In this document: one piece after another, positions 3,794-44,103 of the stretch | Position numbering within the stretch: position 1 is the stretch's first letter | Layout: the number at the start of each line of letters is the position of its first letter | Assembly: GCA_001029795.1 (NCBI GenBank) | Contig: CP011216.1 | Coordinates: 70,903-134,902 of the forward strand | Direction of reading: 5' to 3' | Length of the DNA stretch: 64,000 nucleotides | DNA from: a candidate division Kazan bacterium GW2011_GWA1_50_15 | GTDB lineage: Bacteria; Patescibacteriota; Kazan-3B-28 | Program-made: the position numbers and the translations under genes | The notes under the pieces: model-generated | What the model was told of the DNA's origin: nothing | The model's database searches: none | The model's input: only the letters and a program-made list of their open reading frames with translations

Positions 3794-4390
3794 ATGAGCT
3801 TAATCCCAATGGTGATCGATAAATCCCCGATGGGGGAGCGGGCGTACGATATTTATTCCCGTCTTCTTAAAGACCGCATTATTTTTATTGGTGGGCCGAT
3901 TGATGACAATATGGCCAACTCGGTTATTGCTCAACTACTGTTTTTAGAGAGCGAAGACCCCAAAAAAGATATTTCGCTCTACATCAACAGCCCCGGAGGT
4001 TCGGTTTCCGATGGGATGGCGATCTATGACACAATGCAGCACATCAAGCCGGACATCAACACGATTTGCGTAGGGATGGCGGCTTCGATGGGCGCGGTCC
4101 TGTTGGCTGGTGGCTCACATGGTAAGCGGTTCGCATTGCCTAACTCGCGAGTGATGATCCATCAGGTACTGGGCGGGGCGCAAGGTCAGGCCAGCGATAT
4201 CGAGATCCATGCCAAGGAGATCTTAAAGTGGAAGAGCAAATTGAATGAGATTTTAGCTAAGCATACCGGACAGGAACTGGCCAAGATAGAAAAAGACACC
4301 GACCGCGACTTCTTTATGGAAGCAATGGATGCCAAGAGTTACGGATTAGTGGACGCAGTGTTGGAGAGTACGCCTCTAGTTAAGAAATAG
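3794..4390 (+). CDS. clpP: ATP-dependent Clp protease proteolytic subunit
   Basis: Strong ClpP signature: [20 protein letters not shown]. Confidence 0.9.
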
Positions 4391-4398
4391 CGCCAGCT

Positions 4399-5265
4399 AT
4401 GGAGGTGGTTACTAACATTTTTGATGGGTTAATGGGGCAGGCTCGGGCCAAGGCATTTTTGGGTGCGGCTTTTGCTAATGATAAATTGCCTCAGACGATG
4501 ATATTCGTGGGGCCTAAGGGCGTGGGTCGGAAGACCACAGCGACGATGTTGGCGAGGGCCGTGCATAATAACCCCCAAAAAAATCACCCCGATACTTTTA
4601 TGTTCGCGGATGTGCTGGAAGAATTGCGGGCGCAGGACCAGGCGGGGCCAATGCGAGCCGCCACTGACGCGTTGATCAAGTTTTTAAGTCGATCGCCGAT
4701 CGCTTCGCGATGTAAGGTAGCGATTATTGAAAATGCTGAAGATTTGAGCGAGGCTTCGCAAAATGCACTTTTAAAAACTCTCGAAGAACCGTTAGGGGAC
4801 AGTCTGCTGATCTTGACCGCTGAAGACGAGCAGCGGATGTTGCCGACCATTACCTCTCGAGCCGTTCCAGTAACATTTACGCCGTTGACTGATGGTGAAA
4901 TGAAACAAGCGCTACCACAAATCGGCGATGCGATACTCTTGGCCGCTCAAGGCAGTGCGGGTTGGGCTAAGTTGATGATGGAGCAGCCAGAGCGATGGAA
5001 CGAAGAGAAGTCTATAGCCAACTTTTGGCTACAAGTTTTTGAGAGCACTACAGAGGAGAGGTTTCGGTGGGCTGAAACGATGCGTGAGCGAGAAGACGCG
5101 ATCAGGTTTTTGCGTAGTGGGTTACGCGTGTGGCACCAAGAGTGGTTGAAGCAACCCGATATAACATCGGGGTCTCGGCTAGCAAGACTACAACAGACCG
5201 TTATGCAGGTGCGGGACAATGTGAACCCCAGGGTAGCGATGGAGGCGCTATTGCTGGGAGTCTAA
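4399..5265 (+). CDS. holB: DNA polymerase III delta-prime subunit-like AAA+ protein
   Basis: P-loop GPKGVGRKT, sensor region, approx. 290 aa. Confidence 0.6.
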   Translation: MEVVTNIFDGLMGQARAKAFLGAAFANDKLPQTMIFVGPKGVGRKTTATMLARAVHNNPQKNHPDTFMFADVLEELRAQDQAGPMRAATDALIKFLSRSPIASRCKVAIIENAEDLSEASQNALLKTLEEPLGDSLLILTAEDEQRMLPTITSRAVPVTFTPLTDGEMKQALPQIGDAILLAAQGSAGWAKLMMEQPERWNEEKSIANFWLQVFESTTEERFRWAETMREREDAIRFLRSGLRVWHQEWLKQPDITSGSRLARLQQTVMQVRDNVNPRVAMEALLLGV

Positions 5266-5416: not shown

Positions 5417-5989
5417 ATGTGGGAAATAGTTGTTTTTATAGCAACCGTAGCGGCTCTGATCATGGTCTTGAGAAAGCTCCCGGTAGACGCCGAGACCACT
5501 TTTAAGGAGACGGGCAAGAAATCGGAGACCCAAGAGAAGAGTTTGCGGGTGCAGGCCGATGAGCTGTTCGAGCAGGGCGAACCAAAAAAGGCCGAAGCGG
5601 CCTATCTGAAATTGTTGTCCAAAGAGCCCAACGATGCATCACTGTTCAACAAACTAGGTCTGATCTATTTGGAAAGTAAGAACTACAAAGACGCGAAAGC
5701 GGCGTTGTCGGCAGCGTTGAAGATCGAGCCGGAGAACGATACCTTTTACAACAATCTAGGACTGTTGTACTACGAGATGGAGGACTACGACGCGGCGATC
5801 GAGGCGTATGAAAAATCTGTCTCCATCAACGACAAGATCGCGTCTAGGCTGGTAAATCTGGGGCTGGCGTACTTTATGAATAAGAAGTATCGTAGAGCGG
5901 CTGACAGTTATGAGAAGGCGATCATCTTAGATCCCAGAAACGAAAACTACATTGAACTTTTAAAAAAAGCGGAAGAGAAACTCAAATAG
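5417..5989 (+). CDS. TPR-repeat protein with N-terminal TM anchor
   Basis: Repeated TPR-like 34-aa units (LG..Y...Y..A...Y.KA..L.P). Confidence 0.6.
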   Translation: MWEIVVFIATVAALIMVLRKLPVDAETTFKETGKKSETQEKSLRVQADELFEQGEPKKAEAAYLKLLSKEPNDASLFNKLGLIYLESKNYKDAKAALSAALKIEPENDTFYNNLGLLYYEMEDYDAAIEAYEKSVSINDKIASRLVNLGLAYFMNKKYRRAADSYEKAIILDPRNENYIELLKKAEEKLK

Positions 5990-6065
5990 TGTTTAGTAGT
6001 CAGTATTTAGTATCTAGGAGAGATTATTTTAAATACTAGTCCCTAGATGCTAGATACTAGATGAT

Positions 6066-6141
6066 GCCGACGTAGCTCAGTTGGTAGAGCAACCCCATGG
6101 TAAGGGGTAGGTCGGCGGTTCAAATCCGCCCGTCGGCTCCA
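6066..6141 (+). tRNA. tRNA-Thr (anticodon GGU)
   Basis: Cloverleaf read by hand. Acceptor GCCGACG/CGTCGGC, D stem GCTC/GAGC, anticodon loop ATGGTAA, T-loop GGTTCAAATCC, encoded CCA. Confidence 0.75.
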
Positions 6142-6177
6142 TACAGAATTAAAAATTTAATATCTCTAGCGTCATCT

Positions 6178-6263
6178 GCCGAGGTTCCCGAGTGGTCAAA
6201 GGGAGCAGACTGTAAATCTGTTGGCGCAAGCCTTCGTAGGTTCGAATCCTACCCTCGGCACCA
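6178..6263 (+). tRNA. tRNA-Tyr (anticodon GUA) with long variable arm
   Basis: Acceptor GCCGAGG/CCTCGGC, anticodon loop CTGTAAA, long variable arm, GGTTCGAATCC, encoded CCA. Confidence 0.85.
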
Positions 6264-6341
6264 TAAACCGATATAAGACAAAAAGTGGTTTATGCCATGT
6301 ACTCGAGCATTAGCGAGCAGTACTGTGGCTATAATGAAAAT

Positions 6342-6617
6342 ATGTACTATGTGTATGTCTTGCAAAGTAAGACCGACCGAGATTTTTATATTGGCTTTAT
6401 TCAAGACATTAAACGCAGGTTGTATGAACATAAGGTAGGTAAAAATGTTTCGACCAAGAGCAGGGGCCCTTGGACACTAATATATTTCGAAGGGTTTATT
6501 GATAAGTTTGATGCATTGCGTCGTGAGAGCTATATGAAGATAACAAAGGGACATGCTATGTTGAAGATGATTTTAAGGGAATATCTATTAAAGCAAGCCG
6601 GAGTAGCTCAACGGTAG
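6342..6617 (+). CDS. GIY-YIG domain protein (UPF0213 / YhbQ-like small nuclease)
   Basis: YYVYVLQS...FYIGFIQDIKRRLYEH...RESYMKI match GIY-YIG motifs. The last ~7 codons overlap the 5' end of the downstream tRNA-Thr. Confidence 0.6.
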   Translation: MYYVYVLQSKTDRDFYIGFIQDIKRRLYEHKVGKNVSTKSRGPWTLIYFEGFIDKFDALRRESYMKITKGHAMLKMILREYLLKQAGVAQR

Positions 6618-6671
6618 AGCAACGCTTTTGTAAAGCGAAGGTTGGGGGTTCGATTCCTCTCTCCGGCTCCA
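6597..6671 (+). tRNA. tRNA-Thr (anticodon UGU)
   Basis: Acceptor GCCGGAG/CTCCGGC, D stem GCTC/GAGC, anticodon loop TTTGTAA, GGGTTCGATTCC, encoded CCA. The A27-A43 mismatch makes the anticodon assignment moderately uncertain. Confidence 0.65.
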
Positions 6672-6837
6672 TGTCGTCAAAATGGACTCGCCTTGACACT
6701 GGCTTAACTAGGCTAAGCCAGCTGCTGGGGCTCGTCATTTCTCCTCTCAAAATCACAAACAGAAGCTTAGTTCGTGATTTTGGTTAAAGGGAAGCCCTGC
6801 TTGACAGCAGAGGAGGGATATTTAATAATCTCCAGGT

Positions 6838-7263
6838 ATGGCTAAAAAGGTAAAAGCAGTTGTGAAGATCCAATGCGAGGCGGGACGTGCCAACCCGGCT
6901 CCTCCTGTTGGCACGGCTCTCGGTCCCCACGGGATCGCGATCATGGATTTCTGCAACCAGTACAACGAGCAGACCAAGAGCTTAATGGGACAGGTCATCC
7001 CGGCCGTGGTAACTATCTATGAGGATAGGACCTTTGATTTTATCTTAAAACAGGCGCCGGCCTCGGAACTGATCAAGAAGGCCATCGGTTTGGACAAGGG
7101 TTCTGGCGTGCCGAACAAACAGAAGGTGGGCAAAATTACCAAAGCCCAACTTAGAACAATCGCCGAGCAAAAGATGCCGGATTTGAACGCGAATGATGTT
7201 GAGGCGGCGATGAAGATCTTGGCGGGGACTGCGCGACAGATGGGGGTCGAAGTGACCGACTAG
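6838..7263 (+). CDS. rplK: 50S ribosomal protein L11
   Basis: [33 protein letters not shown] typical L11 N-terminus. Confidence 0.9.
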
Positions 7264-7450
7264 TTATAAACTAGGTGGTCATCCTCGAGTCGAAAGTGAA
7301 ACGTCTCGACATCGGGGATCCAGAAATTAAAAAATAGTGTTTTTGTCTGGATTCCGGATCAAGTCCGGAATGACAGATACTGATTATTTATATTCTTTGA
7401 GGTGGGAGTTCGATTAGTCTTCGGACGTCAAGACCACGCAGGAGAAGAAG

Positions 7451-8248
7451 ATGGCAGAGAAAAAGACAACTGCTAAAAAAGCAGTTAAGAAGTCGGAAGC
7501 ATTAGAGAGCAAGCCAGCCAAAGAGCGGAAACCGAAAGTGCAATTAAGTCCGCCAGCCGGCGGAGGGCACGGCAAGAAATATCTGGCCGTTTTGCCGAAG
7601 GTGGACAAAAATAAATTTTATCCGGTAGCGGAGGTGATCCAACTGGTGAAGGAGACCTCACCGGTCAAGTTCGACGCGACCGCTGAATTGCATCTGCAGA
7701 TGGGTTTGGACCCGAAAAAGTCCGAGCAGAACATCCGCGGAACCGTCACACTACCAGCCGGTACCGGCAAACAGCCGAAAATTCTAGTGCTGGCCGAAGC
7801 GACTGACACTAAAAAGGCCGAGGCGGCCGGCGCCGATTTTGTGGGTCTGGAGGATATGATCGAGAAGATCCAAAAGGGCTGGTTGGGATTTGATGTGGTC
7901 ATCGCCACGCCGGCCGTGATGCCCCAGCTAGGCAAGTTGGGCCAGACATTGGGGACCAAAGGACTGATGCCTAACCCTAAATCTGGTACCGTTACCACTG
8001 ATGTGGCTAAGGCAGTGGAGGAATTCAAAAAGGGGAAAGTCGAGTTTCGCTTGGATAAGGATGCCATTATCCATATGGGTTTCGGTAAGGTCTCGTTTGC
8101 GGCTGAAGATCTGCAGGCCAACCTCAACGCAATCCTGGGAGCTGTGCGGGCGGCCAAGCCCAGTAGTGCTAAGGGTACCTACATCAAGAAACTGTCTCTC
8201 TCGAGTACAATGGGGCCGGGAATAAAAATCGATTTGAACTCCGTTTAG
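7451..8248 (+). CDS. rplA: 50S ribosomal protein L1 (with Lys-rich N-terminal extension)
   Basis: L1 core motifs (GTVTLP, KGLMPNPK.GTVT) preceded by a ~35-aa K/A-rich extension. Confidence 0.85.
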   Translation: MAEKKTTAKKAVKKSEALESKPAKERKPKVQLSPPAGGGHGKKYLAVLPKVDKNKFYPVAEVIQLVKETSPVKFDATAELHLQMGLDPKKSEQNIRGTVTLPAGTGKQPKILVLAEATDTKKAEAAGADFVGLEDMIEKIQKGWLGFDVVIATPAVMPQLGKLGQTLGTKGLMPNPKSGTVTTDVAKAVEEFKKGKVEFRLDKDAIIHMGFGKVSFAAEDLQANLNAILGAVRAAKPSSAKGTYIKKLSLSSTMGPGIKIDLNSV

Positions 8249-43746: not shown

Positions 43747-43932
43747 GGGCGGTTAGCTCAGTGGTAGAGCGCTTCGTTCACACCTGCCCGCCGCATCTGG
43801 ACCCGTGGCTCAGTGGTTAGAGCGTTCGGTTCACATCCGAAAGGTCGGTGGTTCGAATCCACCCGGGTCCACCAGTGTGCTATGGCAGGCGGGTCGAAGA
43901 AGTCAGAGGTTCAAATCCTCTACCGCCCACCA
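43747..43932 (+). tRNA. tRNA-Val(CAC)-like gene interrupted at anticodon-loop position 37/38 by a 111-nt insert
   Basis: Exon 1 43747-43782 (acceptor GGGCGGT, D arm, anticodon stem CTTCG, loop TTCACA). Exon 2 43894-43932 (T, CGAAG, var AAGTC, T arm AGAGG/CCTCT, acceptor ACCGCCC, A, CCA). All four stems pair. Confidence 0.55.
43799..43874 (+). tRNA. tRNA-Val (anticodon CAC), intact, located inside the insert of the outer tRNA-Val-like gene
   Basis: Acceptor GGACCCG/CGGGTCC, D stem GCTC/GAGC, anticodon stem TTCGG/CCGAA with loop TTCACAT, T arm GGTGG TTCGAAT CCACC, encoded CCA. Confidence 0.85.
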
Positions 43933-44103
43933 CGGTTGACAGTGTTGGGGAGATGGGTTAACCTGTCCCCTGTACGCATCCCGCCATTTATTCGTGATTA
44001 ACACGGGTAAATGGTCATTCGCTCCTGGCAGATCGGGTGAGACCGGTCAGCCCCAAGAGTGATCAGCATCAAAATGGCGGGAGAGGCATAAAAGGAGAAC
44101 AGT

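Follow-up and report, generated by a model that had tools for sequence, protein, structure and literature searches.

The window, that is the whole stretch of 64,000 nucleotides (nt) analysed here, belongs to the candidate division Kazan bacterium GW2011_GWA1_50_15, a member of the Candidate Phyla Radiation (CPR). Ahead of the ribosomal protein genes rplK and rplA it carries an operon of three tRNA genes, tRNA-Thr(GGU), tRNA-Tyr(GUA) and tRNA-Thr(UGU), and a small open reading frame (ORF) for a nuclease of the GIY-YIG type lies between the second and the third. The tRNA genes were placed concordantly by ARAGORN and by Infernal with Rfam, and CCA is encoded in all three. The ORF, whose product is 100% identical to VE98_C0001G0083, runs into the last of them, and its stop codon TAG is at the same time the D-arm TAG (nt 19-21) of tRNA-Thr(UGU). 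The same gene arrangement is present in three independent assemblies. Positions 6264-6671, which comprise a structured leader, the ORF and the tRNA-Thr(UGU) gene, probably constitute a laterally acquired, mobile and selfish cassette, one of a huge family that resides in the spacers of stable-RNA operons; we assign to this reading a probability of about 0.6.

The initial annotation had recognised a YhbQ/UPF0213-like GIY-YIG gene that overlaps the 5' end of tRNA-Thr(UGU) by 21 nt. All its coordinates are correct, the overlap is exact, and a profile search confirms the domain (PF01541, residues 1-69, E=2.1e-14, 54 bits against a cut-off of 22.6). Residues Y3, Y5, Y16, G18, R26, H30 and E62 are invariant in an alignment of 16 sequences and align with those of the structure 1zg2 and of SLX1. 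A codon-level comparison gave a ratio of nonsynonymous to synonymous substitution rates (dN/dS) of 0.10-0.13, and the protein is under purifying selection. Because homologous lineages number in the thousands, dN/dS is this low and the catalytic residues do not vary, the ORF is a real gene and not a chance frame. Public annotation lets it begin at GTG 6285, giving 106-110 amino acids (aa); this longer ORF was rejected, since it is not conserved and meets an in-frame TAG in a relative (locus L004), while the start MYYVY, encoded from the ATG that we adopt, is universal among family members.

As for the type of nuclease, the family profile matched the PDB entries 1zg2 (E=8.6e-14), 1ywl (2.9e-11) and eukaryotic SLX1 (1.5e-4). 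The AlphaFold2 (AF2) model, with a predicted local distance difference test score (pLDDT) of 83.6, has strands at residues 2-9, 15-20 and 44-52 and helices at 23-32 and 55-66, which is the GIY-YIG fold; Foldseek related it to 1zg2, 1ywl and Slx1 (probability 1.0), and only marginally to the catalytic domain of I-TevI (E=0.16). The homing endonuclease model TIGR01453 reached 17.6 bits against a cut-off of 56.05 (E=0.003), over profile positions 4-39 only. The chain ends 20 residues past the catalytic domain, with neither a linker nor a DNA-binding domain, and the tail encoded by the tRNA is not conserved and has low pLDDT. An Asn near the C-terminus (N90 in I-TevI) is typical of the UvrC/I-TevI lineage and absent from the Slx1 cluster (PMC1564403); in the 16-sequence alignment, a comparison at the level of sequence, no conserved Asn is apparent in the C-terminal helices. 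Judged by its sequence and its predicted structure, the protein is a catalytic-domain-only member of the prokaryotic stand-alone Slx1-like cluster (Dunin-Horkawicz et al., PMC1564403) and not a classical homing endonuclease. PADLOC and the PHROGs gave no match for it, and only 6 weak relatives were present in the 2.9 million viral contigs of IMG/VR; a phage origin or a role in anti-phage defence was therefore rejected.

That the ORF is an insertion, as had been proposed, emerges from the comparison of relatives, designated here by L numbers and ranked by the identity of ribosomal protein L11. In the Kazan genome RIFCSPHIGHO2_01_FULL_44_14 (L092; L11 93%) tRNA-Tyr is followed by a 175-nt spacer without ORF and then by a second type of tRNA-Thr(UGU), type B; the order is the same in L115 (89%), where the ORF-less spacer measures 325 nt, and in L116 (94%) a type B tRNA-Thr(UGU) adjoins rplK. 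The ORF occupies this site in the window, in L004 (Kazan RBG_13_50_9; L11 74%) and in L005 (77%), and the site is empty in L092 and L115, which amounts to a presence/absence polymorphism. Type B is clearly different in sequence from type A, the tRNA-Thr(UGU) of the window, which has no copy of type B. Both the window and L004 have type A together with the ORF; in L005 only 5' and 3' remnants of it are left.

The junctions can be placed rather precisely. Between the window and L092 homology ends 6 nt past tRNA-Tyr and restarts at the rplK promoter (~6800). The spacer of L115, which follows the CCA of a copy of the tRNA-Tyr 3' end (CCA, then TGTCG...CAAAATCACAAAC...GTTCGTGATTTTGG; CTCCTYTCAAAATCACAAACARAAGCTTAGTTCGTGATTTTGG), is the sequence that follows the CCA of type A tRNA-Thr in the window (window 6738-6783 against L115 1193-1238, 93.5% identity over 46 nt), and in L115 this ancestral spacer lies between tRNA-Tyr and the resident tRNA-Thr(UGU). 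Because the same spacer follows the tRNA-Tyr CCA copy in L115 and the tRNA-Thr CCA in the window, 6264-6671 is taken as one inserted unit, and the interval chosen in the initial annotation coincides with it. On the simplest reading of these alignments, leader, ORF and type A tRNA would have entered together, right after the CCA of tRNA-Tyr, and the resident type B tRNA-Thr(UGU) would afterwards have been lost from the window lineage. Co-transfer of the type A tRNA was also approached through tRNA similarity across phyla, and tRNAs are too short to decide it.

Lateral movement of the cassette is seen in the pair L004 and L005. These share a 470-nt tract, from tRNA-Tyr to nt 13 of tRNA-Thr, that is 90% identical; within it the ORFs have 91% nucleotide identity and a synonymous divergence (dS) of 0.35, as against 57-67% identity and saturated dS in the flanking rplK, rplA, dut and TPR genes. 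The tract ends inside the flanking tRNA-Tyr and tRNA-Thr, and the whole bears the signature of a cassette that was recently transferred to this site, in an exchange that ended within the flanking tRNAs. The initial annotation had held that an ORF found at the same place in orthologous clusters would speak against an insertion. It is so found in L004 and L005 and not in the closer relatives, and this co-location does not refute the insertion, since the closer relatives lack the ORF and L004 and L005 share it through recent transfer. At the junction of ORF and tRNA, L005 carries a rearrangement scar: the type A tRNA breaks off after nt 13, just past the ORF stop (5' remnant 4252-4264), and a 225-nt insert with a type B tRNA-Thr separates it from its 35-nt 3' end (4491-4525), which matches window 6637-6671 at 100% identity. 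The ORF of L004 differs in frame by 1 nt, so that an earlier TAG, at tRNA nt 8-10, is its stop.

The association with stable-RNA genes extends to the whole family, which counts 9,379 representatives of 50%-identity clusters at E<=1e-10. One genome per GTDB species was scanned with 8 closer sequences as the query, which yielded 516 confirmed relatives, and the best 80 of them were examined; these span Kazan, Saccharibacteria, many other CPR groups, Omnitrophota, Planctomycetota, Proteobacteria, Actinobacteria and others. Within 150 nt on each side of the ORF tRNA density is 1.7/kb, compared with 0.02-0.05/kb at a distance of 2-3 kb, an enrichment of ~40-fold. A tRNA lies within 350 nt at 36 of the 80 loci (binomial p ~7e-19 against 8%), all 59 tRNAs within that distance are on the ORF strand, and they are of at least 15 identities. 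Among the loci with no detected tRNA, a transfer-messenger RNA (tmRNA) ends 85-155 nt upstream in 4, a signal recognition particle (SRP) RNA lies downstream in 2, and in 1 the neighbour is a tRNA with a group I intron.

Two geometries are preferred: either an RNA gene ends ~50-145 nt before the ATG, or a tRNA starts at -16 to +21 relative to the stop. The latter holds for 16 of 81 loci (the 80 surveyed plus the window), and in L012, which is the same Kazan RBG_13_50_9 locus as L004, and in L081 the ORF stop is the near-universal U8-A9-G10 of the tRNA. The 21-nt overlap of the window is thus nothing peculiar, but the far end of a general tendency of these genes to adjoin tRNAs closely. Moreover, different spacers of the Thr-Tyr-(Gly)-Thr cluster are occupied, that between Tyr and Thr in Kazan and Kerfeldbacteria, that between Thr and Tyr in Moranbacteria and that between Tyr and Gly in one Omnitrophota genome, which argues for repeated independent insertions. 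The suggestion that the ORF sits where glyT would be did not survive this comparison: no Kazan relative has glyT in the cluster, and L081 (Omnitrophota) has an intact glyT in addition to the ORF, which stands between it and tRNA-Tyr. In Kazan this one type of cassette is found after tRNA-Tyr, after tRNA-Ala(GGC), after tmRNA and once beside only a ...CACCACCA fragment; degenerate copies with in-frame stops also occur (L041 and L060).

Two side observations concern the surveyed loci. Single genomes can hold two family members at different stable-RNA genes, namely L012 and L015 in Kazan RBG_13_50_9 (after tRNA-Tyr and after tmRNA) and L033 and L073. A contig end lies within 300 nt of the ORF in 13 of the 80 loci, as expected for repeated or polymorphic DNA.

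The leader is a further conserved component of the cassette. In the window it consists of a stem, P1, formed by 6264-6270 and 6286-6292 (UAAACC.../...GGUUUA), and of hairpin 2 at 6294-6329 (GCCAUGUACUCGAG...CGAGCAGUACUGUGGC); hairpin 1 (GGGUUCAUGGCG...CGCCAUGAACC) is missing, as a 37-nt deletion relative to L004 and L005. The 78 nt between tRNA-Tyr and the ATG are ~88% identical to those of L004 and L005, against 70-72% for the coding sequence. The hairpin sequence was also used to search metagenomes for further copies; 7 of the 13 matches were unrelated, GC-rich and due to chance. Ten Kazan-type copies were then aligned. Hairpin 2 has compensatory changes in 7 of its 13 pairs across 9 copies, and the fold z-score is -2.4 for the window leader and -6.1 for the full element in L004.

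In Kazan-type contigs this leader element of ~115 nt directly follows the CCA of tRNA-Tyr, tRNA-Ala or tRNA-Lys, or tmRNA. Copies that bear an ORF continue with GGCU-(U)UAUAAU-N6/7-AUG, and the TATAAT is present in all ORF-bearing copies of the Kazan clade and absent from ORF-less ones. Three copies have no ORF (L098, L100 and L108), and such copies follow tRNA-Ala(UGC), tRNA-Lys and tmRNA; L098 is a clean deletion derivative, because it equals the filled copy L014 minus the ORF, with the last two codons and the downstream 30 nt retained. Hairpins of the forms ATAAACC..GGTTTAT and GAACC-ACGT-GGTTC recur in a sister clade of Planctomycetota and Omnitrophota, at 9 of 82 loci and in none of 274 control segments, and a hairpin common to such distant hosts belongs to the cassette and not to the host.

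The ORF is likely co-transcribed with the tRNA operon, because it is co-oriented with the tRNAs and no terminator intervenes. The TATAAT may in addition act as an internal promoter that gives a leaderless mRNA. No Shine-Dalgarno (SD) sequence precedes the window ORF, and SD motifs are depleted in the family (5/79, against 41/159 of neighbouring genes). The promoter of rplK provides a local parallel: it is the only 11/12 sigma-70 match within 5900-6900, and since it stands 8 nt before its ATG and makes rplK near-leaderless, leaderless or near-leaderless expression is plausible in this organism. A related observation was made in a Shapirobacteria genome (L033 2927-3003; L073 1-46), where the ORF ATG abuts the last nt of tRNA-Lys(CUU); with such a 0-nt spacer, 3' processing of the tRNA would create a leaderless mRNA.

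Family members without RNA neighbours lead to the sister clade, which resides inside protein genes. They often share the motif CCCCGT(G/T)A(G/A)ATAA just before the ATG, and this motif is the left arm of a terminal inverted repeat of 12-15 nt (CCCCGTGAGATAA ... TTATCTCACGGGG), of which the right arm (TTATCTCACGGGG) encodes the C-terminal YLTG and the stop; the arms covary between elements. One host, a gene for a 23S rRNA intervening sequence (IVS) protein of PF05635, is broken at profile position 47/48, its halves matching positions 1-47 and 48-106 and the joined sequence reaching E=5e-31; other hosts, judged by eye from translations only, are DUF1016/YhcG-like, GxxExxY and DUF1566-like genes and another GIY-YIG gene. 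Deletion from repeat to repeat restores the host frame (L077), and no target-site duplication was found at the sister-clade inserts. In the light of this clade the selfish, mobile nature of the family is hard to doubt, and stems, of DNA or of RNA, are suggested to be what the element ends have in common. Palindromes of the same arms without an ORF (e.g. CCCCGTGAGATAGCGAGCTCTGCGAGCTCTATCTCACGGGG, in tandem) were observed beside or upstream of an ORF-bearing element (L090 ~480-615 and ~900-940; L044 ~2700-2740). From their sequence they look like derivatives resembling miniature inverted-repeat transposable elements (MITEs).

Table 1. Coordinates of the features at the locus and of related inserts in other genomes (positions refer to the window unless a locus is named).
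Feature	Coordinates	Strand	Remarks
tRNA-Thr(GGU)	6066-6141	+	ARAGORN; Rfam tRNA 70.9 bits; first gene of the tRNA operon
tRNA-Tyr(GUA)	6178-6263	+	ARAGORN; Rfam 59 bits; CCA end 6261-6263, left junction of the inferred unit
Structured leader	6264-6329	+	Stem P1 and hairpin 2
TATAAT, -10-like hexamer	6330-6335	+	6 nt before the ORF ATG
GIY-YIG nuclease gene	ATG 6342 to TAG 6615-6617	+	91 aa; stand-alone catalytic domain; assigned to the Slx1/UPF0213 clade
ORF/tRNA-Thr overlap	6597-6617	+	Exactly 21 nt; last 7 codons of the ORF (AGVAQR + stop) are tRNA nt 1-21
tRNA-Thr(UGU) type A	6597-6671	+	ARAGORN; Rfam 66.5 bits; CCA 6669-6671, right junction of the inferred unit
Ancestral spacer	6672-6800	+	Includes conserved hairpin 6748-6782; homologous to the L115 spacer
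rplK promoter-like site	6801-6829	+	TTGACA-17-AATAAT; ends 8 nt before the rplK ATG (6838)
rplK	6838-7263	+	Followed by rplA
ORF-less tRNA-3'-end inserts	L115 942-1131; L092 2220-2388; L100 (~130 nt)	L100: reverse	L100: after tRNA-Ala(UGC)
Inverted-repeat-bounded elements	L085 591-879; L044 2815-3143; L077, L058, L028, L038, L047, L048, L082, L059, L076		Sister clade

Several known systems resemble parts of this picture. The proteins of UPF0213/COG2827, such as B. halodurans BH0048 (PDB 1zg2) and E. faecalis EF2693 (PDB 1ywl), are like the window protein in having ~90 aa and the catalytic domain only, and the Tyr, Tyr-x-Gly, Arg, His and Glu of its catalytic centre recur in them; the same group includes YhbQ of E. 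coli and YazA of B. subtilis. Unlike UPF0213 as reported in the searchable literature, the sub-family described here has the MYYVY start, no SD and a conserved upstream hairpin, and its genes lie co-oriented in tRNA, tmRNA and SRP-RNA operons or in inserts bounded by inverted repeats, with presence/absence polymorphism and lateral transfer. Eukaryotic Slx1-Slx4 (PDB 7cq2, 4xlg, 6sei) agrees with the window protein in its nuclease fold and catalytic residues. What Slx1 cuts is branched and stem-loop DNA and not a particular sequence, and this is the model that we borrow for a domain-only enzyme at hairpin-rich loci; however, Slx1 has a RING/zinc-finger domain, needs Slx4, and is a repair enzyme rather than a mobile gene.

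Short palindromic elements are known from the REP/RAYT (repetitive extragenic palindrome/REP-associated tyrosine transposase) and IS200/IS605 systems, in which ORF-less copies occur alongside, no target-site duplication is made and insertion takes place beside a short fixed sequence. The leader hairpins and the inverted-repeat-bounded sister clade resemble them, and this is a resemblance only: those systems use HUH (Y1) transposases and not GIY-YIG nucleases, and we know of no transposition chemistry for GIY-YIG domains. A parallel in position is SegB, a free-standing homing endonuclease of the GIY-YIG kind that phage T4 encodes within its cluster of tRNA genes (PMC13096335). There too a GIY-YIG gene lies between tRNA genes and is inherited with the adjacent tRNAs, and alleles of the tRNA region compete; but SegB has ~220 aa and a DNA-binding domain, tolerates sequence variation and is phage-borne, whereas the window protein is a catalytic domain only, belongs to another GIY-YIG clade, is chromosomal and is nearly absent from viral contigs. 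In the rRNA genes of CPR bacteria GIY-YIG ORFs have been described in insertion sequences that are not introns (Tsurumaki et al. 2024, PMC11270868; Brown et al. 2015 as cited there). These are alike in that GIY-YIG ORFs lie in or near structural-RNA genes, with no recognisable intron and a sparse, patchy distribution, and genes of 23S_rRNA_IVP (PF05635) occur in the same kinds of insertion (PMC11270868). They differ in that those insertions lie inside rRNA genes, with tRNA and tmRNA receiving no mention in that report (PMC11270868), while here the ORF occupies an inter-tRNA spacer and has its stop in a tRNA.

The searchable literature, which includes few subscription journals and makes for a weak negative, yielded no co-oriented association of Slx1-like mini-genes with tRNA, tmRNA or SRP RNA, and within the same limits we found no nuclease-plus-tRNA module displacing a resident tRNA, no covarying leader of this kind and no inverted-repeat-bounded relatives in protein genes. 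The protein family, SegB in a tRNA cluster and the GIY-YIG insertions of CPR rRNA genes are known, and the association with RNA genes, the nuclease-plus-tRNA module, the covarying leader and the gene-interrupting clade are new as far as that literature goes.

A possible course of events can be outlined. Insertion of the module would have taken place precisely behind the CCA of tRNA-Tyr, with later loss of the tRNA-Thr(UGU) already present in the operon. Transcripts of the tRNA operon, and perhaps others started at the TATAAT of the cassette, would carry the ORF, which would be translated without a Shine-Dalgarno sequence, its frame running into the tRNA until the conserved TAG of the D-arm. 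Cleavage by RNase P at 6596/6597 would then strip the stop codon from the message, which could keep expression low. The minimal nuclease, presumably structure-specific like Slx1 and not sequence-specific, might nick or break stable-RNA genes prone to form hairpins or cruciforms, or the hairpins of the cassette; repair would then duplicate the cassette, the highly conserved tRNA sequence on its flanks providing the arms of homology, in a gene conversion similar to homing. To the part of this scheme in which the nuclease itself drives the mobility of the cassette we give somewhat less than an even chance.

A wider proposal, more tentative and in our judgement rather unlikely, is that genes of the MYYVY type form an undescribed class of minimal mobile elements, whose sole protein is a structure-specific Slx1-like nuclease and whose ends are stems of DNA or RNA. 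The ends would be the covarying leader hairpin and the neighbouring RNA gene in one clade, and the inverted repeats of 12-15 nt in the other. Cutting at the base of an extruded stem or cruciform would account for precise insertion after CCA or at fixed motifs (as at position 47/48 of PF05635) and for clean excision, by which the host sequence is regained. A cassette of the tRNA-linked clade could bring along a tRNA allele that takes the place of the one already present, as in the window, and a stop codon inside the tRNA would couple expression of the nuclease to incomplete processing by RNase P.

Several points weigh against the reading of 6264-6671 as a selfish cassette. Neither terminal inverted repeats nor a target-site duplication, the latter suggested at the outset as something to look for, were found around 6264-6671, which does not have the marks of a DNA transposon or insertion sequence. 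The window ORF is 70-72% identical in nucleotides to those of L004 and L005, like rplK; the transfer signature is not seen for this copy, which on that comparison is old, and its divergence also fits a long vertical residence with loss in the branch of L092 and L115. About 40% of the surveyed family members have no detected stable-RNA neighbour, and the protein has no DNA-binding domain, which leaves its site preference unexplained. A full sigma-70 promoter for the ORF was rejected, the sigma-70 scan calling none and the internal signal being a -10 match only, with no -35. We know of no family member with an established nuclease activity or cleavage site.

The main rival, improbable though it seems to us, is that the protein is beneficial to the host, as a repair or recombination nuclease similar to Slx1 or as a stable-RNA factor, that it is inherited mainly vertically and lost in some lineages, and that it stands in tRNA operons for constitutive co-expression. 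The strong purifying selection (dN/dS ~0.1) equally fits such an enzyme, as do the same position in three Kazan lineages, the strict co-orientation with RNA genes and a divergence between the window and L004/L005 equal to that of L11. COG4123, which enters the argument here, we take to be the tRNA methyltransferase TrmN6. Related stand-alone Slx1-like GIY-YIG genes are, in other bacteria, fused to or linked in operons with those of tRNA methyltransferases, a TrmH-like one and COG4123, which could point to a role in RNA metabolism (PMC1564403). A vertically inherited enzyme, however, would hardly show a dS of 0.35 between the cassettes of L004 and L005 while all flanking genes are saturated, nor would the closest relatives be expected to lack the cassette and to carry the other tRNA-Thr allele; paralogous copies at different RNA genes within one phylum or genome, deletion derivatives and pseudogenes, neighbouring tRNAs of many identities and a sister clade that interrupts protein-coding genes also tell against it, and for the selfish cassette.

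The cassette might also be mobile with its nuclease uninvolved, as a passenger with, for example, an addiction or competition function, the module spreading through conserved tRNA sequence by homologous or integrase-type recombination acting in trans. The ends of the high-identity tract of L004 and L005 inside tRNA-Tyr and tRNA-Thr, the junctions at CCA ends and the occurrence at similar sites of other inserts, of 130-190 nt and without ORF, between duplicated tRNA 3' ends (L100, L115 and L092) all agree with this view. We nevertheless leave it only a slim chance, since it would not account for the fact that this one nuclease family, out of all small genes, is met beside stable-RNA genes across many phyla, or for the conserved hairpins or inverted repeats that come with it. 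The neighbourhood, moreover, contains no integrase gene, so that an integrase-mediated tRNA-targeting island was rejected, although the unit does start after one tRNA CCA and end with another. The initial annotation had thought of a selfish element of the homing type, and the RNA-gene association and the lateral movement between Kazan lineages uphold the general idea; a classical homing endonuclease like I-TevI or the Seg proteins (e.g. SegB), free-standing and specific for a sequence, is a different matter. A GIY-YIG domain standing free inside a tRNA cluster and the sub-threshold match to TIGR01453 recall one, but the protein has only 91 aa and neither linker nor DNA-binding domain, the TIGR01453 score is far under its cut-off of 56 bits, sequence and fold group with UPF0213 and Slx1 with I-TevI at the margin, PHROG matches are absent and IMG/VR is nearly empty of relatives, and with at least 15 identities among the neighbouring tRNAs there is no single recognition sequence; such an enzyme is very improbable. 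An intron- or intein-encoded endonuclease was rejected, because Infernal called no Rfam intron in 5500-7500 even at E<=1, and the tRNA genes on either side of the ORF are complete. A short frame that overlaps a tRNA in a metagenome-derived genome might be suspected of being spurious or an artefact of assembly; the Pfam match, the catalytic residues, the dN/dS of 0.1, the three independent assemblies and the thousands of homologues effectively exclude this.

If 6264-6671 is indeed a selfish cassette, one of the most widespread groups of bacterial proteins of unknown function, the stand-alone UPF0213/Slx1-like GIY-YIG proteins, gains through its association with RNA genes a testable biology. The cassette shows how tRNA alleles can be replaced in the streamlined genomes of CPR bacteria; the structured leader and the inverted-repeat-bounded inserts in protein genes may represent a new kind of mobile element; and recurrent overlaps between ORFs and tRNAs, which gene callers treat as conflicts, find an explanation.

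Other rearrangements were observed at tRNA genes. Inserts of 130-190 nt without ORF stand right after a tRNA and are followed by a duplicated tRNA 3' end of 13-18 nt (e.g. ATCCTACCCCCGGCACCA; Table 1), and this points to another kind of element in Kazan-type genomes, with tRNA 3' ends as its insertion sites. In the tRNA-Thr/tRNA-Tyr cluster of L004 a scar at 4447-4518 consists of a 20-nt 5' fragment of tRNA-Thr(GGU) (GCCACGTAGCTCAGTTGGTA), a GC-rich hairpin and then a complete tRNA-Thr(GGU). An intervening sequence of ~190 nt (L092 1864-2057; L005 2696-2884) splits the tRNA-Thr(GGU) gene of these two relatives at the 3' border of the anticodon loop (after ...CCCCAUGGUAA), and the window gene has none; the two sequences are homologous (77% over 275 nt), and no Rfam group I intron was called in them even at E<=1. 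Between tRNA-Thr(GGU) and tRNA-Tyr, where the window has a spacer of only 36 nt (6142-6177), L005 (3024-3821) and L115 (1-855) carry a free-standing LAGLIDADG_3 endonuclease gene with an N-terminal helix-turn-helix, 81% identical between the two and absent from the window, L092 and L004. The L005 copy has TATAAT-N6-ATG and reaches 23 nt into the 5' end of tRNA-Tyr, which is also the geometry of the GIY-YIG ORF.

The repeats of the CTAGATGCTAGAT type that had been noted as flanking DNA do exist, with 5 matches within 2 mismatches against 0.8 expected, at 6005-6062 and, inverted, at 10570-10589, but they are neither flanks of the insertion nor a target-site duplication, since one set precedes the entire tRNA operon and the other is in the spacer between thyX and rplJ. 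They are CTAGAT(G/A) heptads, which at 6002-6062, upstream of tRNA-Thr(GGU), form an imperfect palindrome of 28 nt, and which recur inverted at 10561-10590, ~4 kb away; L092 has analogous GATACTTGATAC repeats in the same position upstream of the operon, and a regulatory or promoter-associated role may be considered. Downstream of the cassette, a 13-bp hairpin (CAAAATCACAAAC/GTTCGTGATTTTG, 6748-6782), 93% conserved in L115, precedes the rplK promoter, and Rfam called no L11 leader near rplK. Elsewhere in the window, at ~43885-43935 and just 3' of tRNA-Val(CAC) (43799-43874), there is a tRNA-like minihelix, not called by ARAGORN, which consists of an acceptor stem and a T-arm and ends in ACCA (ggcgggtcgaagaagtcagaggttcaaatcctctaccgcccacca).

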